Virus record (IMG/VR): IMGVR_UViG_3300028422_000873
DNA: 64,000 nt
Reading direction: 5' to 3' (one strand)
Source: a virus
Taxonomy: Duplodnaviria; Heunggongvirae; Uroviricota; Caudoviricetes
The notes under the pieces are model-generated. The model searched no databases and was not told the origin of the DNA. It saw only the letters and a program-made list of their open reading frames with translations. Shown piece by piece: positions 11,477 through 63,689 of this stretch. Each line of letters starts with the position of its first letter. The stretch's first letter is position 1. The position numbers and the translations under genes were made by a program.

Positions 11477-12859
11477 TTATGATACAATTACTTCATCTAC
11501 TATTTCTTTGAAATACTCTATTCGTTGAAGTGCATGTCTTTTAAGCATACTACTCCCATTTGGTACATAATCAATTATAATACATTCAGTCTTATCTCCA
11601 TAAATTCTTAATCCACGGCCTATCGCTTGTATTACAGGGCCTTTAGAGGCCATAAAATTAGCCATAATAAGTACATCTACTCTTCTAGTATCAGTTCCTT
11701 CGCCTACCTTACCACCAGTTCCTATAAGACAGTTAATTCGTCCCTCATTTAAATCTTTTACATATGATTGTGATTTGCTATCTTTACCTTGAGCAAACGG
11801 ACAACCGATTTTTTTTGCAAGAGCTTCACCATGAGCAACCTCTGCAACGAGACATAATACATTTAATCCCTGATCTCTATAATTAGTTATATCTTCAATT
11901 ATCTGTTTATTCATATATGGATCATTAAGTACGTTTGCTTTATAATTTTTTAACTTATTATCTTTAAAGTCTCCGCCTCTTGTATCTATATTTTTAGATA
12001 TAAAAACCGGCTTAGCTAGATACTTATGTTCTACACCCCATTTAATATCTCTTTTGATTTTAACATCTCCACATCCAGCTGTGATCATTATGTCTTTTCC
12101 ATCTGATCTATAGTCTGTCGCTGTAAGACCAAATATCTTACCTGTGTCACCTAGTGCACTAGCAATATCATAAAATGTATTAGCTGCTATATGATGAACT
12201 TCATCAAATATAATAAGTCCTAAGTTTTCTTCTTTAAATTCATCTAGATTGCGTACAATACTTGCTGCTATTCCTACTGTAATATCTGCTATTTTCTTTT
12301 TGCCACTTCCATATAATGCAACTTTATGTTCACCAAAAGCTTCTTGTAGTGATTCTATAAACTGTTTAGCAATGGATTCACCGGGAACAACAATCAATGT
12401 TTTCTTTTTAATTTCTTTAATGGCATATAGAGCAATAAGGCTTTTTCCCATACCAGTAGCTAAGTTTACAACCCCTCTGTAATGATTTTTCATTATATCT
12501 ATAGCTTCTCTTTGATAATCTCTTGGATCAAAGGCTTTATTTTTCCATGGCAATGAAATAGTATCACCTGTATCTGTTCTTCTATCTTCAAAAGGTATAC
12601 CAGAACGTTCTATATAATGAAAGAGACCAGAGGAAAATACCATATGCCCACCAGGCACTTCTTTCCACATCTTACCATTTGCCTCTTTTTCAAGATCTTT
12701 ATATTGCTGTGTTTTTTTTAAGAAAGGATTTTTAGCCATTCTATTGAGTTGATATAGTTTTGACTTATCTTTAAAAGATAGTAGTTGCTCTAATGAACGA
12801 CGTACAACTAATGATGGATTTTGCAGTAATATTAATTTATTAGTGATTATTGCTTTCAT
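11477..12859 (-). CDS. superfamily 2 DNA helicase (UvsW-like)
   Basis: ATGMGKS, DEVHH, GLTAT, QAIGRGLR; start moved to ATG 12859 because TATAAT lies 6 nt upstream. Confidence 0.92.
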   Translation of the reverse strand: MKAIITNKLILLQNPSLVVRRSLEQLLSFKDKSKLYQLNRMAKNPFLKKTQQYKDLEKEANGKMWKEVPGGHMVFSSGLFHYIERSGIPFEDRRTDTGDTISLPWKNKAFDPRDYQREAIDIMKNHYRGVVNLATGMGKSLIALYAIKEIKKKTLIVVPGESIAKQFIESLQEAFGEHKVALYGSGKKKIADITVGIAASIVRNLDEFKEENLGLIIFDEVHHIAANTFYDIASALGDTGKIFGLTATDYRSDGKDIMITAGCGDVKIKRDIKWGVEHKYLAKPVFISKNIDTRGGDFKDNKLKNYKANVLNDPYMNKQIIEDITNYRDQGLNVLCLVAEVAHGEALAKKIGCPFAQGKDSKSQSYVKDLNEGRINCLIGTGGKVGEGTDTRRVDVLIMANFMASKGPVIQAIGRGLRIYGDKTECIIIDYVPNGSSMLKRHALQRIEYFKEIVDEVIVS

Positions 12860-51478: not shown

Positions 51479-52288
51479 TTAACTCTGTTCTTCTGCTTGC
51501 ATAAGAAAATCTCTCTTAACCAATACTTGCTGTGGAAGTCTTCTAGCTATTTTCTCACCTGTTGCAATATTATATTCTTGAGTAACCCTCATTTCATGCA
51601 TTACATTTTGCACAGTATATACTGGATTCGTAGTATAAGTTATTGATATTACTTCACCAATATCATTTAATTCATCATATTGAGGTTCAATAAGCCAATG
51701 AATATCACCATCTGAAGTGATCTCATAATCAGTATCTTCTATATATTCATATAACGACCCATTTACAACTGCAGTCATGTAATCTATACAAACAATCGGG
51801 TATCTTAATCTAGTGATTTTATTAGTGCTTGATTTATATTCTATTAGGTCATTCAATCTAACTTCAAAATCAGGACAATAGAGTTGATCGAATGTGCTAA
51901 AGTCAGCCTGTTGACCATTATTATATTCTGCTGGGAAAGTTATCACTGCTGTACCGATTTCCCACACTCCTTGAACTTCAAACATTTTCTCAAGTGAATT
52001 AGAAGTAAATGCACCCCAAATTTCTCTTTGATCTGACGTTCCGGGGAATGTATCGTGGTATATCATTTGAGAGTTATCACAAAAAGGACAGTCAGGTGTA
52101 TGATTATTTTCATGTAAACCCTTCATATTTGGACATGGAGCAGCCACTCTATGTATGAAGCGAATTCCTCTGTTATTTAATAGTTGATCCCAGGCAGCAC
52201 CACGTATACTTGGATCAGCAATCTCATACGGCATAGGTGAAGGTGTCGATCTGCTGGATTTATTATATTGTTGACTAGGTTTCTTCAT
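51479..52288 (-). CDS. neck / head-tail adaptor protein
   Basis: APCP...CPFCD Cys motif, ISITYTTNPVYTV..VMHEMR; first gene of the late transcript. Confidence 0.6.
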   Translation of the reverse strand: MKKPSQQYNKSSRSTPSPMPYEIADPSIRGAAWDQLLNNRGIRFIHRVAAPCPNMKGLHENNHTPDCPFCDNSQMIYHDTFPGTSDQREIWGAFTSNSLEKMFEVQGVWEIGTAVITFPAEYNNGQQADFSTFDQLYCPDFEVRLNDLIEYKSSTNKITRLRYPIVCIDYMTAVVNGSLYEYIEDTDYEITSDGDIHWLIEPQYDELNDIGEVISITYTTNPVYTVQNVMHEMRVTQEYNIATGEKIARRLPQQVLVKRDFLMQAEEQS

Positions 52289-52309: not shown

Positions 52310-52368
52310 ATTATACCAAATTTCAACTTATCATTTATTTAACTATGATCTTTATTTATCGGTATAAT
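52310..52368. promoter_or_regulatory. divergent -10 promoter pair at the late/early boundary
   Basis: TGGTATAAT on minus (52310-52318) and CGGTATAAT on plus (52360-52368). Confidence 0.7.
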
Positions 52369-52374
52369 TAGAAT

Positions 52375-52746
52375 ATGAATCAGAAAAATGATATAATACA
52401 TAAAGAAGATGAATCAACTCAAGGCGATGAAATCATGACCTGTTCTTTATCAAAAAAAGCAATACTACAGAAAATCATTAAAGAGGAAGGAAGTTGCGAG
52501 TGGATAATTGATGAATATTCTAATCAAGATATCTGCCACCTATGTCCTTTTAATACCTTAAAGAAAAAAGATAAATTTAATTTCTTCTGCTGTTATGAAG
52601 CCGTTAATGGTACAGCTCAACCAACAGAGGAAGAAGCAAATCGGAAATATAAAGAGACTGCTATACAACTATTAATAGATATGATAGTTGAAGAAGAAGT
52701 TTTAGGTAAAGATTCCGAAGACTTTGAGAGCGTATCGTATGAGTGA
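52375..52746 (+). CDS. Cys-rich family protein
   Basis: GSC...CHLCPF...CC; tail EEEVLG; leaderless. Confidence 0.75.
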   Translation: MNQKNDIIHKEDESTQGDEIMTCSLSKKAILQKIIKEEGSCEWIIDEYSNQDICHLCPFNTLKKKDKFNFFCCYEAVNGTAQPTEEEANRKYKETAIQLLIDMIVEEEVLGKDSEDFESVSYE

Positions 52747-52972
52747 AAAAGACATAGAGTTACTTGAAGAGATCGTTAATAAAAAAGGCGATTGTCTGAA
52801 TAGACGCCTATGTGAGAGATGTCCCTTTAGGCGTAAATGCTTACCAACTTTTCTAGATAGAACAACTAGAGTAACAAAAGCAGAACGCATGATTTTAGCA
52901 TTAGAAACTATTACGAACGCTATGTTGTTTGACGAGGATAGCGATGGTGAATATTTCGACAACAGAAGTTGA
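52724..52972 (+). CDS. Cys-rich family protein
   Basis: DIELLEEIVNKKGDC...CERCPF..C; tail NAMLFDE. Confidence 0.75.
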   Translation: MRAYRMSEKDIELLEEIVNKKGDCLNRRLCERCPFRRKCLPTFLDRTTRVTKAERMILALETITNAMLFDEDSDGEYFDNRS

Positions 52973-55900
52973 TCCTTGGGCGCCTCATGTTCAAGATATG
53001 TGGTTCACAATACAACTGCTATGTGTTCTTCATAAACTATGCCACATAGAAATGAAAAAACATGGGCCTATTAGTAAGTATTGATTCTGTATCAGCACAT
53101 CATATGTATAATATAATGCGTATACTGATTGTAATAGGTATATCCAACTACAGTAAAAACGATTCTTATTTTTTATCAGAAACATTTAAAATTCGACTCA
53201 TAGACTTTATAACTACACCAAGAGATGAATACTCCAAAGAATTCAGTTGGTATATTAAGTTTAGTAAAATAAATACATGACGTATTTAATCAATAAAGAA
53301 GATATACATATGTTCTTCAATGATCCGCGATATAGTTGCATTTGTAGATTAATGGATTTCTTATTATATCCACTCGATATCGTCGATGAGTCTTATATAG
53401 AGAATACTAGCATAAGAGATTTCATAATGCGAGTAGATAACAATGATCTATAATCCAAATTACTATCTTATAGATGATTTCATAGACATATTATGGCGCT
53501 TAAATATAGTTCATTGTAAATATACATATCACAATGAAGATCAAGAATTGATATGGATTGATGATAATATTTTTTATTTAAAAATTTTGGAATATTATGA
53601 AAGAATGGCAATACAGCAGAGAAAGAAAAAGAGTATCTTTTCAAGATTCGTTAAGAACGTGCAGGGAATTATGGCGCGTATTAGCTAAATTAGAAGTCGG
53701 CTACGACTGGACACCATCTAGTTGGAATAATATACCTATACCCGTTGTTCCATTTGATGTGTGGATATATTTAAGCAGGTACACTCGTAGACATTGGTGG
53801 AGAGGTAATCAGTATAATATCCCAGATCGTATAATAGAAAAATTTTATAACGGAGAACTTTAATAAAATGAAGTTTGAAGATCTAAGAGTAGTTAATATG
53901 GAAGGATTATTTGCTCTTGATAGTACTATTCAGTTATTTAGAACCCTATCAAGATTAAACTTATTTCCTATTGGGGCAACTCGCTTTACAAAACATTTTT
54001 TAAATTATGTGGTAAAACATGGACACGATAGATTATTTAGAGACTAACAGTGATCTCACAGATAGCTTACTTAATTTAAGAATTAAAAGCACAATGAGAA
54101 AATTAGGTATATTACCTCATAGGTTAACACTGGTAGAGATGCTTGAGGAAATGGATGTCGCGTGGCAGGGATGCGTATCACGGGGATTCACATTTAATAG
54201 AACAATAAAAATCGAGAGCAATAATGAATAGAAGATCACTTCTTTCACCACGATGGTGTCACACCAAAGACATGACATCGGCATGGAATTCCTGCATAAT
54301 GTTATTAGATACTTTTAGACTTCTAGATGTAGATACTGCACTTATTAATCCCAGCAAGATATACATATATAAATTTTGGGATGCCAATGCTGAGTGAGTT
54401 TCAGATACAGATTATAAGAGAACAAATTAAATCTTGCGACGGTTTATATATCGGCGATAGACCACTTTGTTGTTTTTCACACTTATTAGGTGTATTACGT
54501 ATTCTAGAAGTTGCCGCTCTTATCTTGTACTTTACCGATGTGATGGCCTTTGTTGATAGATATGCCGATAAGCCTCTTATCCCCGAAAAAAGCCCCCGGG
54601 GTAAAAAGAAGTAAAAAAAGAAGTAACCATGAGATCAGTAGCCAGCAAAAACTATAACATAGCAATAAGATTATTCTTAACGTGTGATCTGTTAGATCTA
54701 ATGCCCGAGTCATGGACTAACCTAGACGTTGGTGACTACTGTGCCATAGCTTTCAAAGATCATCCATATCAGACTCAATACGTTAAATCGTACAACAGCG
54801 TATTTGATCTGATATATAGCATGAATAAATTAGATATAAGTCTATCAAGTTGCTCATTATTTTACCTATGGAAATTTACGAAGAACCACTGGAGCTATCA
54901 TGAGTAACACCACTCCTCACGCTAATAAAGTCGATACCTCAAACGTCTATCTAACCTTATTTCTCATGAACATGTTCGACACTATGGCCAAACTAGGTTT
55001 GTGCGACGAATGGATGGATATCATACTATTCATGCGAATGATAGGTCGATACAGAAAACTTGGACTAGTCTATGACCAACCCAGTAAACAGATAGCTTTT
55101 GTAGAATAATAACACGGAGGTTATCATGATCACGATCAGAGGCAGCTCGGTAAGATGGTACGACTCATGGTGTATATTAAGAAATCTGCACAGTATGTTG
55201 TGTAGACTCGACGTATATATCTACGTACAACCCGGTTATGTATACCGCTGGGATCCCGAGCTGGATACTGATCTGGACGACAGGGAGCACAATGAGAACT
55301 GATGATCTAATGTTACACATGTTGAAGTTACTATATAGATTAGAGATTTTGAGTATCAATAACTTAAAGAATATGTGTTGCTGGAGTGAAGAGTGGCTCT
55401 AGTAGATCTATTGAATCAACTAACCGAAGAGAAAATACAAGCACTCTGTATAAGATACAAGATGTTTCAGATGCTGGAACGACTGAGGGTAAACGTATGG
55501 AGATAAACTACCATAGATATCTAGAAAACACATACGTGCTGATGAGAATGCTGTGGAAGTTCGGCATAAACAGCGATGCTATATACTCGTGGGACAACAT
55601 ACCAATGGCCTCAGTCAGACTGTACGAGTACGTGGACGAGTGGGGAGAATACTATGATCGATAATCAGTACAAGTCTCTTGAAACAGCAGAGATCATGAA
55701 AGTCTACGCGATACTCATGACTCTGCGTAAGTTGGAGATATACAGCTGGACGTTCAGTTTAGTAGACGCTCTCAAAGAGAGAAATAAGATCTACGACTTC
55801 ATTAAAGTGTGGGGGTGGGATGGAATCGCATATTGATAGAAGAGTAAAGACGATCAAGTCCTTCAGGTGGCTTACCATGACATTAGAGAAACTCGGCGTG

Positions 55901-57606
55901 ATGAACTACATGGGATTATTGGCCTGCAAGGGATACATGGATAGGCACTATGACATATGATTACATGGTAAACTGCATATGCGATATTTTTAAACTGCTG
56001 CGACTGATGGGCGTGCCGACGGATTACTGGATATGGAATGATGGCGTGGAAACCGTGATAGAGGTATATATCACCGACGTCTACGATTTTATAGATGCGT
56101 GGGGTGGTGATGGCGACTAACCCTGTTGTTAATAGAATGTTGAACATAATAAACATAATGTTCATGATGGAAAGGCTATGCAACTGCGACTATCCTGGAT
56201 TTCGTAGCTGCAGAGATTATGCAATGAGGTGGTACGATGAACTCAAATAGAGATAATCAATGATTCTTGCAGCTACGATGTTCGACAGTGACGACTATAA
56301 GGCAATAGATAGATTGATAACGATGTTGATCAAATTAGATGTGGTTAAGTGGGATTGGGATTACGGTCTACTTGAACCGTGGGAATACGTGCTCAGATGG
56401 GGAACAGTGGAGAAGCAAGAGATTATTTTAGAGCAATTATGAGAGCAGTATATGTAAACGGACGTGGAACAACGATGTACGAGGATGACGTGATCGAGCA
56501 CATGATGTGGACAGTGATGAAACTGGGATTAGCAGGGACCGAGTGGTGGCTAATGTACCCGATGGCGTACGACGATGAATAGCATAGAGAAAGTCATTGA
56601 TAGCGGGAGTTACAGGAGTTTGATTGCATTTGTTATGGCGCTGCTGCATCTGGGTATTATCGATATGCATTATGCGGTTAGTATGGCAGACATGGATTTT
56701 GTGGTGAACTACGGGTTGGGAGACACGAGTGAGTAGGAAGAATCTGGTGATGATGTATTTCGATATATGGGTGATGATGGATAAGTTGGACATAGCATCT
56801 GGGTATTTTAGGAAAAGTAAGTTGTACATGTATGATTATTACGTGCGAGAGTGGGCGGCTGACGATGATTGATGAAAACTCGATTTTTAAAAGTCGTAGT
56901 TATAGGGTGCTCGACGCAATGATGTTGATGATGTACAGGTTGTACATAGTTGATACTAGATGGTATCTTGATACGTATTCTATGTATTTTGTTAGGCGGT
57001 GGGGAAATGAGTGAGGATGGTTCATATGTGGTGCTCAAGTTGGTGTGGATGTTAAGCTATTTAGAAATAATTAAGAAGCGCAAGATACAGAAGAGAGCAG
57101 GATATTATTATGCGCCGGGTATTAGTCCGATAGCTGTTATGAGATTTGTGAGAAAGCATGGAAAATAAGGGCAGAGATACAGTGTTTGATTTGGTGTGGA
57201 CGTTGCATAGGTTGAATATAGGGACTGTAAGATGGGTAGAAGCAGGATATTGTTTGCCGAGTATTACGGTTGATATATTGAGAGCATTTGTGAGCAGACA
57301 TGGGTAGTGAGAAAGTTGATTCTATTTGGGTGATGATCAAGATGTTGAGTAAGTTGGACTTGGATATGAGTGAGTGGTTCAGTTATCATTGGAATCTCGG
57401 TGAATTTGCATCTAGTAAGTTTTGGAGTTTTGTGAGGAAGATAGATGTGTGCGATTAGAAGCGAAGATATAGCATATGAATTGGTGAGAATTCTATGGAT
57501 GTTAGATATCGATGATAGATATTGGGTGAGTCAAAGTGGATATTATGTAGGACATATTCCTACTAGTGTTATAGTAGAGTTCGCTAATAAATATAAAATC
57601 AAATAG
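52944..57606 (+). repeat. tandem array of 28 paralogous mini-ORFs (36-92 aa)
   Basis: Manually translated, mostly overlapping ORFs: 52944-53084, 53062-53280, 53277-53453, 53443-53688, 53597-53863, 53868-54047, 54019-54231, 54224-54397, 54381-54614, 54629-54907, 54900-55109, 55126-55302, 55292-55402, 55393-55506, 55497-55664, 55654-55836, 55820-55960, 55950-56120, 56110-56250, 56260-56442, 56439-56582, 56575-56736, 56729-56872, 56865-57014, 57007-57168, 57158-57307, 57300-57458, 57445-57606; shared (T/M/I/V)L-x-(K/R)-L-(G/D/E/N)-(I/V/L) core. Confidence 0.8.
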
Positions 57607-57746
57607 TTAGATCAACTAAAAAACAATGAAAATTCTAGGTATATAAAAAATAGGGTACATGTACATTGTGTTTTCAACTATATAGGTACAAAGGCACTGG
57701 GCCCCTTTATATGGTAGGGCCATAGTTTTTGTGGTACCTGTACCGA

Positions 57747-57805
57747 CCGACTCGAAGTAAGGTTCATACTTACCGAGGCTAGCGGGTGCCTTTGACCGAC
57801 TCGAT
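57747..57805 (+). promoter_or_regulatory. two CCGACTCGA motifs (putative early promoter element)
   Basis: CCGACTCGAA 57747-57756 and CCGACTCGAT 57796-57805, upstream of a GGAGGT-led ORF. Confidence 0.55.
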
Positions 57806-57835
57806 AAGAACTCAACAACTTAATCGGAGGTCGAT

Positions 57836-57931
57836 ATGATCGCTGTCATCATTACTGTACTGTACCGACTCAGACAAAGACGACAGACTCGATTCCCTCC
57901 CTTAACTGGGAAGGATAAACAAGGGGGTTAA
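57836..57931 (+). CDS. 31-aa hydrophobic/basic peptide
   Basis: MIAVIITVLYRLRQRRQTRF...; GGAGGT SD. Confidence 0.55.
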   Translation: MIAVIITVLYRLRQRRQTRFPPLTGKDKQGG

Positions 57932-57932
57932 C

Positions 57933-58121
57933 ATGAACGGTAAGACTTTTACCCGGACTCAGTTGATCAACCACGAACAGGGGACGATGGATCTCAACGG
58001 TGAAGACGTGGCTCTCGCCATTCAGGTAATGGATAGGGACGGGGACAACGTCGCCCACTTCGGCGTCAACGGTCATTTCCTGTACAGCGAGTTCAATCCC
58101 GCGTACGAGGTGATGCAATGA
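57933..58121 (+). CDS. hypothetical early protein
   Basis: 62 aa; AGGGGG SD; C-rich third codon positions. Confidence 0.7.
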   Translation: MNGKTFTRTQLINHEQGTMDLNGEDVALAIQVMDRDGDNVAHFGVNGHFLYSEFNPAYEVMQ

Positions 58122-58309
58122 GACGCGAGTGGTTCAGGGAGTATTACTGGGGTCCGATGTTCGTTACATGGATCGCTGTTCCTAGTAACATGCAGAGCAG
58201 GGGAGACAGACCCGACAGGCGAAGGATGAGGACTATGAGTAAGAGAGGGAGACAGGTGTGTCGCAGCATCCGTCAACCCAAGAGAGGAAGGGGGAACAGA
58301 ATAGATTAA
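58118..58309 (+). CDS. Arg-rich hypothetical protein
   Basis: ATGA overlap with the previous ORF. Confidence 0.45.
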   Translation: MRREWFREYYWGPMFVTWIAVPSNMQSRGDRPDRRRMRTMSKRGRQVCRSIRQPKRGRGNRID

Positions 58310-58313
58310 GAAC

Positions 58314-58492
58314 AGTGGTCTCTAATGGCAGAGCTAAGTTTACCTCACTGAGGGGTAAAACCACTCTATCACTGGCCGTCGCGAGCCATGTGCGATAGTA
58401 AGAGCGACCACGTAATATTGCCGGTTAGATAGGGGAGTGATGCCACTTTAGTCGTAAGTCCTTCGGGCAAACGGTCTCGCTGCTCTCCTATT
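58314..58492 (+). ncRNA. candidate structured non-coding RNA
   Basis: AGTGGT/ACCACT stem enclosing CTCT/AGAG and TTTACCTC/GGGGTAAA hairpins; ATAGGGGAG/CTCTCCTAT stem; cTTCGg loop; no ORF. Confidence 0.4.
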
Positions 58493-58494
58493 TT

Positions 58495-58536
58495 AACTGA
58501 CACTGCTACGCCTAACAGAGCTACAACCGATTCGAT
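58495..58536 (+). promoter_or_regulatory. bipartite repeat element, copy 1
   Basis: AACTGACACTGCTACGCC + 14 nt + CCGATTCGAT. Confidence 0.7.
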
Positions 58537-58693
58537 ACTATACTATCAACATAACAAATATAAGTTATGTTACTTTAGTCTGTTAAGACAAGAGCGGGCA
58601 TCTATGACTATGCGTCCGGTGGATATCTGTGATCACCTAAAATGCCACAGTAGTCGGGTGGTGGGACGAGAAGTCCCACTGCGTGCACCTTTT

Positions 58694-58745
58694 AACTGAC
58701 ACTGCTACGCCCGCGACCGACTCTGTGTAACTGAACCGATTCGAT
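58694..58745 (+). promoter_or_regulatory. bipartite repeat element, copy 2
   Basis: AACTGACACTGCTACGCC + 24 nt + CCGATTCGAT; further CCGACTCGAT at 58789 and 58835. Confidence 0.7.
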
Positions 58746-58880
58746 ATAAAGTCAACAACAAAATAAGTTAAATAAAATAACTTATTAACCGACTCGATGA
58801 GTCAACAACATTAAAAAACATTGGTAGTTAATAACCGACTCGATTATGTACTACCAACCAAGCAAACGAAGGGGGTTTGT

Positions 58881-60150: not shown

Positions 60151-60423
60151 ATGAGTAAGCGAGTATTACCAGAAGCTTTTGATGGTCTAGATATAGCATC
60201 TATTGTAGATGAAGCTAAAAGAGAGTTCGATGATGGCGCATCGACTAATCTAGTGTGTTACACGCTCAATCCCTCTCAAGCCGGCATGTCTGGCTGTGAT
60301 CAGTGTTTAGTCACAGCTCTCTTACCGGCTAAAATATGCTATAAATACAACCACTATAGAATTATAGGCATGCTTCAAGAGATCATAGCAGAAGAGATCC
60401 TACTAGGAGACAGAAATGAGTGA
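60151..60423 (+). CDS. Cys-rich family protein
   Basis: C...CDQC...C; tail EEILLGD. Confidence 0.75.
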   Translation: MSKRVLPEAFDGLDIASIVDEAKREFDDGASTNLVCYTLNPSQAGMSGCDQCLVTALLPAKICYKYNHYRIIGMLQEIIAEEILLGDRNE

Positions 60424-60507
60424 GCGAATACTGCAATACCTATACAAACAATACTGGTTTAAGAGATACCTAGTAAGAACATGGAAGTATCTTAGAAGGA
60501 CGGATAC

Positions 60508-60813
60508 ATGAGTCAATACCGTCCCACCCAAGAAGAAATAGATAAGCTGATGCACGTGTACAACGAGTACTACGACCCGGACAAGAACGAGTGGTCTGGA
60601 GATCAGTGCGAGTTATGCATCGTGCTAGATCCCGCAGAAGAGAGTGATGATCTCGACGACTACGACTTCTTCTGTGAACAATGTATTATCACCAAGTTAA
60701 AACTAGATAACTTCTGCAATAACAGCGATACCTATTCAGCCACTCTAAAGGCCATCGAGGTCGTAGTCCAGCAGGCACTAGAGAAAGAAGTATTCGAGGA
60801 GGAAAATGAGTAA
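60508..60813 (+). CDS. Cys-rich family protein
   Basis: CELC...CEQC...C; tail KEVFEEE. Confidence 0.75.
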   Translation: MSQYRPTQEEIDKLMHVYNEYYDPDKNEWSGDQCELCIVLDPAEESDDLDDYDFFCEQCIITKLKLDNFCNNSDTYSATLKAIEVVVQQALEKEVFEEENE

Positions 60814-61078
60814 ACCAATCATAAAAGAGTTCAACTCGCTCACTGACTCTGAAGTTAAATTCCTGCAGCGTCTGGTCAACAATAAGGGTCATGCTTCAGG
60901 TCGCTGTACTTACTCTAGTTACTTCACCTGCGAAGGATGTGCGGTGTACGAACTCAACGCTGACCCCGATAAATCACCTCCAAGAGATTATGACTGCCTT
61001 AGTAAAGAAGCTCTAGCCATAGCGAAGGAGATACTCGACATCAACATCACAAACAATATACTACTGGGGGAAGAATGA
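60806..61078 (+). CDS. Cys-rich family protein
   Basis: EVKFLQRLVNNKG...C...CEGC...C; tail NNILLGEE. Confidence 0.75.
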   Translation: MSKPIIKEFNSLTDSEVKFLQRLVNNKGHASGRCTYSSYFTCEGCAVYELNADPDKSPPRDYDCLSKEALAIAKEILDINITNNILLGEE

Positions 61079-61320
61079 TCGACCTATCTTCCCACGACGT
61101 AAATTTCCTAAAGGAACTAATCCAGAACAACGGCGAATGCCGAGGATATAGATGGGACGGCGATATACACATGTGCTCAAAATTCTGCCCCATCATGAGG
61201 AGATACAATAGATGTTATAGTTTCCAGGACACCAAGGGGGTAGCTATCTATATCTTATGGGAATACGACGCCCATATAGACTCCATCCTGTTGGACTCTG
61301 TCGAGTCCGGTCAGCAGTAG
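61075..61320 (+). CDS. Cys-rich family protein
   Basis: DVNFLKELIQNNGEC...CSKFCP...C; tail DSILLDS. Confidence 0.75.
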   Translation: MIDLSSHDVNFLKELIQNNGECRGYRWDGDIHMCSKFCPIMRRYNRCYSFQDTKGVAIYILWEYDAHIDSILLDSVESGQQ

Positions 61321-61677: not shown

Positions 61678-62025
61678 GTGATGAGTGGAAATGAACCAGA
61701 TACTGTGGGTCCTCAGTGGGTCCACAGCGTAGATATCAGGTATGAGAGAGGTCTGCCGATAATAAGCCTGTGCATGGACGATATGAGTACTGTTAGGCAT
61801 GAGTTTTCCCCTAACGATAGACTCGTGATTAGATCCGCATACAAGTCCTTAACTCATATGATAGATGTATTGTTTGAATTAGAAGTGATAGACTATATGT
61901 CTGTATCAGATGAGTGGATGTTCTTGTTGAAGAGTTTATTTAGGAAATATGAGTGGAAAGAAAATATATTGAAGAAGATTGATGGTTTAAGTACATTTAT
62001 GATTTGGGTGGAAGGATTAATATGA
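61678..62025 (+). CDS. QWVH-family protein 1
   Basis: QWVHSVDI...VLFELEVI...LKSLFRKYEW. Confidence 0.75.
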   Translation: MMSGNEPDTVGPQWVHSVDIRYERGLPIISLCMDDMSTVRHEFSPNDRLVIRSAYKSLTHMIDVLFELEVIDYMSVSDEWMFLLKSLFRKYEWKENILKKIDGLSTFMIWVEGLI

Positions 62026-62159
62026 GTGAGAGATCAATTAGAGAAAAAAGATGTGGAATATAGTATACGATCTTCGTATGATGCTCAGTAAGATGGGAGT
62101 AATGGAAGCAACCTTTATATGGATGAACATATACGACTACATAGACAGGGTAATGAAAG

Positions 62160-62501
62160 ATGAGTGAGCAGTGGGTCCACAATGTTGGCATAAGGTACAA
62201 GCGCAGAGCACTTATGATATATTTGTATGTAGGTGACGAATGTGCCTCTGTATTGGACTGCGATGTTGTTAAGCATCAGATATCCTCTGGAGATAGCTCT
62301 GATATTGAGCTTATATGCGCGTGTATAGGAAGGATTAGGAAGATATTGTATAGACTTGAGATAGATCAGAATGATTATTCGTCTAATGCACTTATTAAAC
62401 CAGTGTTGAAGAGATTATTTAATAATTATGAGTGGGATAAAACTGGTCTTAATATAGATACAGGAAGTTATTACTTATTATGGGAATGGTTGGATATATG
62501 A
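62160..62501 (+). CDS. QWVH-family protein 2
   Basis: QWVHNVGI...ILYRLEID...LKRLFNNYEW. Confidence 0.75.
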   Translation: MSEQWVHNVGIRYKRRALMIYLYVGDECASVLDCDVVKHQISSGDSSDIELICACIGRIRKILYRLEIDQNDYSSNALIKPVLKRLFNNYEWDKTGLNIDTGSYYLLWEWLDI

Positions 62502-62985
62502 TCAGTGAGGAGAAGAAATTCGATATGTGGTCGACCACGAGGAGGTTATTGAAAACTCTCATTCGTTTAGGAGTAAATGCCTCTCATCTTTACATGTATT
62601 CCTATGTAGAGAGGGTAATAAAGAATAGCGATAGCATAGATTAGATTGAAATAGGGATATACGATATGTGGTTTATAATGTTTAATCTGAGAAAAACCTT
62701 CATGAAGATGAAAGTGAGTTTTTCCGACATGAGCATACATGACTATATCAAGAGAGTAACTTATGATGAGTGAAGAAAAGAGAAGAGCGTATATGATATG
62801 GTATACATGGTGTTTATTGAAGATGCTTTCAAAAATGAACGTAGATGTTTTCGGTTTTCAATTAGAAAATTATGTAAATAGGATAAATAGATTATGATTG
62901 TATTAAGATTATTAATAGCACTTAGAAAATTAGAGATAATTACTTCTTTTTCTGGTGTATGTGAGTATCTATCAAGGATAGGTGA

Positions 62986-63354
62986 ATGAGTAAACAATGG
63001 ATTCACAAGGTGATAATTGAACCTGATAATAACTTATTATTAATAAAGTTATTTATAGGTAATAAAGATGCTTTTATGGAAGATTGGAATATCACAAGAT
63101 ACGGTCTTTGTGTTGAAGATAGATCGCTTCTAAAATATAGAAGTATGTATTTACTTAAGGTTAGAGACATATTAAATAAATTTGAGCTGATACCCCTATT
63201 AGGTATTGGAGATTATATCCACGAAATGAGAGCATCTGTGTTAAAGAGTTTATTTGATAACTATAGGTGGGACGAAGAAAGAATATTTGATATAGTAAGT
63301 CACAGAGACCTACTTATCTTTATAAAATGGGTATACGGTGAAGAACGATTATAG
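62986..63354 (+). CDS. QWVH-family protein 3
   Basis: QWIHKVII...ILNKFELI...LKSLFDNYRW. Confidence 0.75.
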   Translation: MSKQWIHKVIIEPDNNLLLIKLFIGNKDAFMEDWNITRYGLCVEDRSLLKYRSMYLLKVRDILNKFELIPLLGIGDYIHEMRASVLKSLFDNYRWDEERIFDIVSHRDLLIFIKWVYGEERL

Positions 63355-63467
63355 TGACATTACGACACCCAAGTGGCTTATATTCCTAGATTTAATAGGA
63401 ATACTAGGGAAACTAAAAGTCGATCTTGATATTGCAAGTGCTGGCGTGGTATTGGGGAGATTGAGAG

Positions 63468-63689
63468 ATGAAGAAAAGAAATAAACTAACTGACAAAGAT
63501 ATAGAGATACTTGAAGAGCTCAAGAAAGCTAAAGGAGGTTGTTATTGTACTAAACTGAGAGATCTGTCTTGCGACTGTTGTCCTTTAGGAAATTTGACGA
63601 TGGCAAGAGGATGTAACGAAGAGATAGCATTTAAACATGCCGTACGTTTGTTGGATGAACATATTAACTCTATATTATTGGGGGAATAA
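63468..63689 (+). CDS. Cys-rich family protein
   Basis: DIEILEELKKAKGGC...CDCCPL...C; tail NSILLGE. Confidence 0.75.
   Translation: MKKRNKLTDKDIEILEELKKAKGGCYCTKLRDLSCDCCPLGNLTMARGCNEEIAFKHAVRLLDEHINSILLGE

Follow-up and report, generated by a model that had tools for sequence, protein, structure and literature searches.

In a 64,000-nucleotide stretch of DNA (hereafter the window) from an uncultured tailed phage, IMG/VR record IMGVR_UViG_3300028422_000873, positions 52944-57606 of the plus strand are occupied by a head-to-tail array of very short genes, which form one real, maintained, highly diverged and clade-specific multigene family of micro-proteins. Their constant part is an amphipathic helix with an L-x-K-L-x-I/V core, which also occurs in proteins of other architectures. 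As far as sequence permits a judgement, we put a probability of roughly 55% on the reading that the array is an early operon driven by a host-type promoter, which would supply host-directed small proteins sharing this helix for docking or assembly. The window corresponds to bases 64001-128000 of one 166,618-bp contig, and all window features listed below are on the plus strand unless stated otherwise.

Overlapping micro-genes tile the array far beyond chance

Plus-strand open reading frames (ORFs) of at least 45 codons (n=27) cover 99% of the 4.7 kb between 52944 and 57606, compared with a mean of 16% and a maximum of 43% in 500 Markov simulations and with 45% on the real minus strand. With revised starts, the ORFs encode 36-92 amino acids (aa) with a median of 56, and 19 of the 27 are shorter than 60 aa. 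Start and stop codons overlap at 20 of 28 junctions, mostly by 4, 8 or 11 nt (range 4-17 nt), and in 19 of 30 genes the annotated frame outscores the other five in codon usage. The gap-free tiling by mostly overlapping ORFs, over half of them under 60 aa, that had been reported in a preliminary description of this DNA was thus borne out, as was its statement that the array holds no DNA-level repeat, none being found when such repeats were sought there. We rejected the possibility that the array is a single long repeat protein split by frameshifts, as each unit has its own ATG or GTG and its own stop codon with regular 4/8/11-nt overlaps; this is further countered by the equal unit structure in independent assemblies of relatives. 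On the minus strand, an antisense ORF of 130 aa (56437-56829), which is the longest ORF in the stretch, lies opposite six family genes. It matched neither the family nor any database entry and is likely to be spurious, but a gene caller could favour it and mask the small genes.

The micro-proteins share a core that is conserved at the protein level

The strict motif L-x-[KR]-L-x-[IVL] was found in 11 of 28 ORFs, whereas 1000 shuffles of matched composition averaged 0.46 such ORFs and never exceeded 3, and a looser seven-residue motif was found in 22 of 28 ORFs (shuffles, 2.8; maximum, 9). The common LxKLxI-type core that had been noticed from the letters alone therefore lies far above chance. 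Two conserved Leu positions are encoded by five to six different codons, which indicates that the conservation acts on the protein. When all six-frame ORFs of the genome were searched with a profile hidden Markov model (HMM) built from nine ORFs, 13 more were recovered at E<0.01, and shuffled versions of these ORFs gave no match. Similarly, the HMM of a 20-sequence alignment (A1), tested against 10 shuffled databases, gave 22 matches above the best score of these databases; above the score at which one false match per genome is expected it gave 34, every one of them on the plus strand. In total, the family counts about 36 copies in the genome, of which a single one is on the minus strand, and at least 10 of these paralogous small genes stand head to tail on one strand, as in a tandem multigene family.

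Outside the core the proteins are hypervariable, as originally described, and this includes their charge: isoelectric points (pI) span 4.1-10.1, and net charge is negative in 15 of 27 members, down to -9.5. Their Trp content is 3.25 times that of the proteome; for Met and Tyr the factors are 2.7 and 1.7.

Not all of the about 28 paralogs first counted stand equally firmly: 17 ORFs are supported by profile and about five by motif only, and three or four are doubtful. The array opens with two of the latter, a 46-aa ORF (52944-53084) with the variant core LLCVLHKLCHI, which had no HMM match and a weak match to its positional counterpart in the related contig L001, and a 72-aa ORF (53062-53280), doubtful or degenerate, which had no HMM match and an E-value of 0.002 to a member of the related contig L003. 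Members matched by the HMM follow at 53277-53453 (58 aa), 53443-53688 (81 aa), 53597-53863 (88 aa; score 10.0 and strict motif; a 92-nt overlap with the preceding ORF and an uncertain start) and 53868-54047 (59 aa; score 10.0 and strict motif). Two probable members recognized by motif only, at 54019-54231 (70 aa, TMRKLGI) and 54224-54397 (57 aa, TFRLLDV), precede a weak member at 54387-54614 (75 aa; iterated HMM E 0.023), an HMM-matched member at 54629-54907 (92 aa), whose unit lies in the C-terminal half and whose N-terminal half may be a second, degenerate unit, and a further motif-only, probable member at 54900-55109 (69 aa, TMAKLGL). The member at 55126-55302 (58 aa) reached E 0.0099 with the HMM and 7e-9 with the iterated HMM; it adjoins a probable short member known by its motif only at 55292-55402 (36 aa, or 54 aa if the start is 55238), which scored 17.0 with a position-specific scoring matrix (PSSM) of the helix. 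Both the HMM and the codon score support the member at 55497-55664 (55 aa, or 92 aa if the start is the GTG at 55386), and codon scores prefer another frame over the nested 37-aa ORF at 55393-55506, which the preliminary description had included for its MLERLRVN sequence and which is doubtful.

Between the HMM-matched members at 55654-55836 (60 aa) and 55950-56120 (56 aa) lies the last of the probable, motif-only members, at 55820-55960 (46 aa, TLEKLGV; helix PSSM score 14.0), and a doubtful 46-aa ORF at 56110-56250, with neither HMM nor motif match, is placed here by tiling only. The distal part consists of HMM-matched members at 56260-56442 (60 aa; AlphaFold2 model all-helical, with a predicted local distance difference test score, pLDDT, of 77), 56439-56582 (47 aa; ATGA overlap), 56575-56736 (53 aa), 56729-56872 (47 aa; GTG start), 56865-57014 (49 aa), 57007-57168 (53 aa), 57158-57307 (49 aa; AlphaFold2 helices at residues 4-18, 24-28 and 35-48, pLDDT 71), 57300-57458 (52 aa) and 57445-57606 (53 aa), the last array member.

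While the array lies between the coordinates first assigned to it, the family reaches beyond them to about 15 other genome sites and to a second HMM-matched cluster at 61678-63484, in which six minis (62051-62167, 62480-62644, 62666-62773, 62763-62897, 62894-62989 and 63338-63484) are interleaved with three proteins of about 115 aa that carry the helix in the middle (61678-62025, 62160-62501 and 62986-63354). Further members were observed among tRNA genes far from the array, in the tRNA/RtcB region (genome 12130-18965), with hits at 12130, 14843, 18762 and, weakly, 16859.

The constant element is a single helix found in three architectures

The constant part of the family is a 16-residue amphipathic helix, h-x-x-h-L-x-K-L-x-I/V, with one wide hydrophobic face and a conserved exposed Lys/Arg. 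Searching with a PSSM of this helix only, we found 10 further ORFs compared with 1.0 expected, nine of the ten on the plus strand and membrane-anchored proteins among them. Apart from the helix-first minis, four membrane-anchored proteins of this phage terminate in the motif; they have an N-terminal transmembrane helix (KD19 >2.2), then a basic stretch, and then the motif as the last residues before the stop codon. Three to six proteins of about 115 aa have a beta-rich N-terminal part followed by the helix in mid-protein, and in the corresponding region of a complete 167,515-bp relative, G001, about 15 helix-first minis come after a set of 14 beta-rich proteins (52-71 aa), each with the ending ...L-x-K-L-G-V-[IV]-stop. 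In membrane-anchored and beta-rich proteins the first helix thus stands by itself at the extreme C-terminus, so that what is constant is a portable single helix and not a scaffold.

The preliminary description had instead proposed a fixed two-helix scaffold, in which the core is followed by an aromatic helix in many members. A second helix with the pattern [FY]-[VI]-x-x-[WHY]-G is indeed present in most helix-first minis, and AlphaFold2 with paralog alignments modelled a helical hairpin or small bundle. Nevertheless, not every member has the second helix, and the linker that separates it from the first can be as short as about 5 or as long as about 30 residues. In addition, the C-terminal "H-G", "W-G-x-E" and "D-D/E" endings contain the ATG of the next gene and a G-rich stretch that serves as its ribosome site, and part of this second "motif" is therefore constrained at the DNA level. 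These observations bear on the possibility that the core packs on the aromatic helix to give a self-contained scaffold, and that the array is a library of independent binders directed against host or defence proteins. The hypervariable charge and the richness in Trp and Tyr would suit such binders, as would the modelled hairpin; the core helix occurs without a second helix, however, in the four membrane-anchored proteins and the 14 proteins of G001, and together with the variable linker and the partly DNA-level conservation of the C-termini this makes the binder library an unlikely account, although one that deserves to be kept in view. The roles in anti-defence or in a hetero-oligomer that the preliminary description also suggested are plausible.

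Database and structure searches recover no known family

Pfam searches with 20 members and PHROGs searches with 10 members gave no match at E<=0.01, and a sequence profile search of the PDB gave none. A profile search of 1.8 billion representative proteins returned six hits, five of which are the window's own proteins; the sole foreign match was a 60-aa protein (E 7e-4) on an 807-bp contig. With alignment A3, a word-indexed search of 5.8 billion clusters returned one hit, a G001 member named "hypothetical protein", and a feature search of the Atlas returned only scores of up to 0.89, with ankyrin-like proteins among the leads. The earlier assertion that no known family is recognizable thus holds for Pfam, PHROGs, PDB sequences, the fold libraries searched and the 1.8 billion representative proteins.

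Some resemblance exists to helix-turn-helix (HTH) domains such as HTH_3, HTH_IclR and Sigma70_r4, which are likewise small helical units with a helix, then a Gly/Asp/Asn turn and a hydrophobic residue. If the minis were degenerate HTH proteins, they could regulate by binding DNA or could partner the truncated sigma factor of the phage in the manner of region 4, and the pattern L8-[GDN]9-[IV]10 ... aromatic15 does suit the hydrophobic positions of a classic HTH. The accompanying hints are weak and non-significant: HTH_IclR matched one of 20 members at E 0.026, below any curated cut-off, and the Atlas shape matches comprised Sigma70_r4/LuxR (template modelling score, TM, 0.48), HTH_3 (TM 0.43) and GntR (TM 0.42). 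No Pfam HTH model matched the other 19 members, no profile match was significant, and the spacing after the turn is variable. Moreover, acidic proteins make up the majority of the family, their net charge reaching -9.5, which is ill-suited to DNA binding, and a basic recognition surface was not found. We therefore regard an HTH identity as quite improbable.

The array is kept at one site and turns over faster than structural genes

Five IMG/VR contigs (L001-L005) encode the neighbouring virion protein at 54-74% identity, L001 being the closest (74%), and G001 was found by an alignment-based search with a 148-aa early protein, for which a single-sequence search returned none. In L001-L005, with the region fixed before the scan, 21 of 22 profile matches (E<=1) lie on the syntenic strand and side (Fisher p = 1e-15). 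Comparing array content across relatives, we found that the array at this site, with its about 25 members here, numbers about 11 in L001, spread over 2.2 kb, and at least 30 in G001; G001 has four extra minis on the other strand, beside a Cys-rich gene and the virion-protein gene. No relative, not even L001, has 1:1 orthologs of the array genes, and 22 of 33 members are closest to a paralog in their own genome, with best identities of 37-47%. Since orthologs are lacking despite the conserved virion protein, the array turns over far faster than the structural genes, and among relatives both its copy number and its sequence vary faster than the core genome. The family shows rapid birth-and-death evolution, and most likely it arose by old tandem duplications followed by very fast divergence.

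Divergence of this extent, with best paralog identities of 37-47%, might also suggest that the array is mostly evolutionary debris, namely duplicates drifting under relaxed constraint, most of them without a function of their own. Weak ribosome sites, atypical codon usage in the distal half and three or four ORFs without the motif fit this idea. What speaks against it is the maintenance of the array: open frames extend over 99% of the 4.7 kb against a chance maximum of 43%, the start/stop overlaps persist, as does the hydrophobic pattern of the helix, written in varying codons, and arrays of 10 to 30 or more copies stand at the same site in every relative examined. Mostly functionless copies are accordingly a poor explanation, to which we give little credence.

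The array stands at the start of a plus-strand arm of small genes behind a host-type promoter match

Minus-strand genes for replication and structure stop at 52288 of the window. The plus-strand arm begins at 52375, runs through the contig end and continues to about 27 kb of the contig; nearly all genes are small over about 37 kb, and the array stands at the very start of this arm. The best sigma-70-like promoter match in the region, TTAACT-18-TATAAT (52339-52368), lies directly upstream. Just 6 nt separate the end of its -10 box, TATAAT, from the ATG at 52375 (window 52363-52377), leaving no room for a ribosome site, and the first plus-strand gene may therefore have a leaderless mRNA, as judged from this spacing. 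No terminator-like sites were found on the plus strand inside the array. The phage-specific word CCGAYTCGAT is absent from the array and first appears at 57747, right after it. Translation of the array genes probably depends on coupling.

The genomic position also bears on the proposal that the helix is a capsid-targeting signal, by which the minis would be packed in the head and injected with the DNA as are the T4 internal proteins IPI-III and Alt, diverse proteins with a short common capsid-targeting sequence: the array does adjoin the head-neck gene block and a short segment common to diverse small proteins does resemble that sequence, but the array is opposite in strand to the structural genes and lies behind a host-type promoter match, the helix begins 8-25 residues into the protein or lies at its C-terminal end rather than at the extreme N-terminus, and no conserved protease-site motif is visible in the alignments, so that this proposal is very improbable.

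Companion families and genome setting

The transcription unit is opened by two Cys-rich small genes (52375-52746 and 52739-52972), which belong to a separate paralog family and have homologs in the same place in L001, L003-L005 and G001. This second family is even larger, with proteins of 57-128 aa encoded in the window at 52375-52972, 60151-61320 and 63468-63689 and in many copies in the small-gene arm (L006 977-9201). It features an N-terminal "L-T-x-x-D-I-x-x-L" helix, a C-x-x-C-P-[FVI] motif and, at the C-terminus, a conserved tail of the form I-L-L-[GE]-x-[DE]. In both operon-opening copies the Cys motif reads C-x-x-C-P-F-x-x-x-C-L, which resembles the cluster-binding motif of WhiB (Pfam WhiB E 0.013, below the cut-off), and one copy of the family had a weak match to phrog_14146 (E 0.044); Pfam and PHROGs scans of the neighbouring families gave nothing at E<=0.01. 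In the small-gene arm (L006 128-9201; genome 128128-137201), cassettes recur that combine a Cys-rich gene with a mini, a membrane-anchored protein that has the motif at its end and a beta-plus-helix protein of about 115 aa, which suggests that the families are functionally linked. Collagen-like proteins built of G-x-y repeats, in runs of G-[TIV]-[ND/DG], and starting with an N-terminus of lipoprotein type are also encoded in the early arm, both here (L006 3016-3651) and in the relative L005 (4014-4604, reverse-complement coordinates).

Directly 3' of the array, 57607-58880 is nearly without ORFs, has a G+C content of 0.40-0.47 and carries nine plus-strand CCGAYTCGAT-like words (10 in the window compared with 2.5 expected); it matched no Rfam family, and tRNA and Rfam scans across 52-64 kb found nothing. 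PHROGs matches for sheath, virion and portal-like proteins mark the virus as a tailed phage. The stretch is present in metagenome runs only, those of the probable source samples, one of them labelled hydrothermal vent and no RNA run being listed among them, and a comparison of its DNA with 50,697 phage records, in near and distant modes, gave no match. The contig ends (1-144 and 166475-166618) form an exact 144-bp terminal direct repeat; the assembly is therefore probably complete or circular, and the repeat probably arose where the assembly of a genome that is circular or circularly permuted overlapped itself. Direct terminal repeats are the class assigned to the relative G001.

Discussion

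We favour the reading that the array is an early operon of host-directed small proteins sharing a docking or assembly helix. It would be the first transcription unit of the plus-strand arm, read from the host-type sigma-70 promoter at 52339-52368 and early for that reason, and it would produce, by translational coupling, about two dozen mostly helical, soluble proteins of about 45-90 aa, the largest block of the family. The helix would dock all of the proteins that carry it to one common partner or to each other, because it is the sole part shared by soluble, membrane-anchored and beta-domain proteins and because it combines a wide hydrophobic face with a conserved exposed Lys/Arg. The variable remainder, rich in Trp, Tyr and Met and diverse in charge, would supply different activities or targets, most likely serving host takeover or counter-defence early in infection. 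Early timing, a docking or assembly helix and a host-directed role are, in our judgement, the most likely interpretation of these data.

Several observations weigh against this interpretation. The promoter is a consensus match only, and the number of sigma-70-like matches in the region is not above that in shuffles. Of 30 array starts, 15 are without any Shine-Dalgarno (SD)-like word, in contrast to the strong AGGAG sites used by the long genes of the phage; furthermore, the part at 55-57.3 kb, which is unusual in its G+C and amino-acid composition, shows atypical codon usage and codon scores near zero. Weak ribosome sites and atypical codon usage together mean that some copies could be poorly expressed or decaying. 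The helical models are of moderate confidence (pLDDT 71-77), and fold searches of the PDB (Foldseek), AFDB clusters, BFVD, VIA wide and the Atlas returned only background (Z<=4.5, TM<=0.48). Finally, it is from the domain architecture that the docking role of the helix is deduced.

In a bolder version of the favoured reading, the helix would serve as a portable address tag that brings more than 40 small early proteins, among them soluble minis, membrane-anchored proteins and beta-domain proteins, to a single hub protein or into one mixed assembly in a clade of phages of about 167 kb. We regard this as speculative and rather unlikely; if true, it would describe a tag-based effector system in which new effectors are made by duplicating the tag and varying the rest.

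Comparable gene sets are known from other viruses. The gp37-gp60 module of SPO1 and the small early genes of T4 form dense small-gene clusters of host-takeover or early accessory genes, with a presumed role in shutting the host off or protecting against it. Like the present array, they crowd very small genes together where an early arm, here a putative one, begins, and the host polymerase apparently reads them; they differ in consisting of mostly unrelated genes with strong ribosome sites, whereas here one expanded family has weak sites and translational coupling, and an early timing that is read from the promoter match only. The MGF110/360/505 families of African swine fever virus (ASFV) and the ankyrin families of poxviruses, for which roles in host range and immune evasion are the usual model, are likewise lineage-specific paralogs of variable copy number that evolve faster than the core genome, but they belong to eukaryotic viruses, encode much larger proteins and have no sequence or fold relation to the proteins described here. 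The jumbo phages G and 121Q carry tandem arrays of more than 30 similar genes, which have been explained by tandem duplication (Hua et al., 2017, mBio, PMC5646251). These arrays are likewise long head-to-tail runs of paralogs in a large phage; their copies are "very similar" (PMC5646251), whereas here identities are at most 37-47% and a DNA-level repeat is lacking. G and 121Q are jumbo phages, while this genome has 167 kb, its helix also occurs in other architectures, and no sequence relation was seen (no PHROG match). The present, probably early family is thus a new one of a kind already known in phages, that of tandem early multigene families, and it is distinguished by its extreme divergence, the size of its micro-genes and its modular helix.

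About 4-5% of this genome, and likewise of its relatives, is spent on one family that standard gene callers and databases largely miss. Early families with such fast turnover are prime candidates for host-takeover and anti-defence functions, for which phages are currently being mined. The single conserved helix in three architectures offers an experimental handle: should all these proteins dock or assemble through it, identifying its partner would account for dozens of genes together. Otherwise, the array remains a clear example of micro-gene birth-and-death evolution in an uncultured phage lineage.

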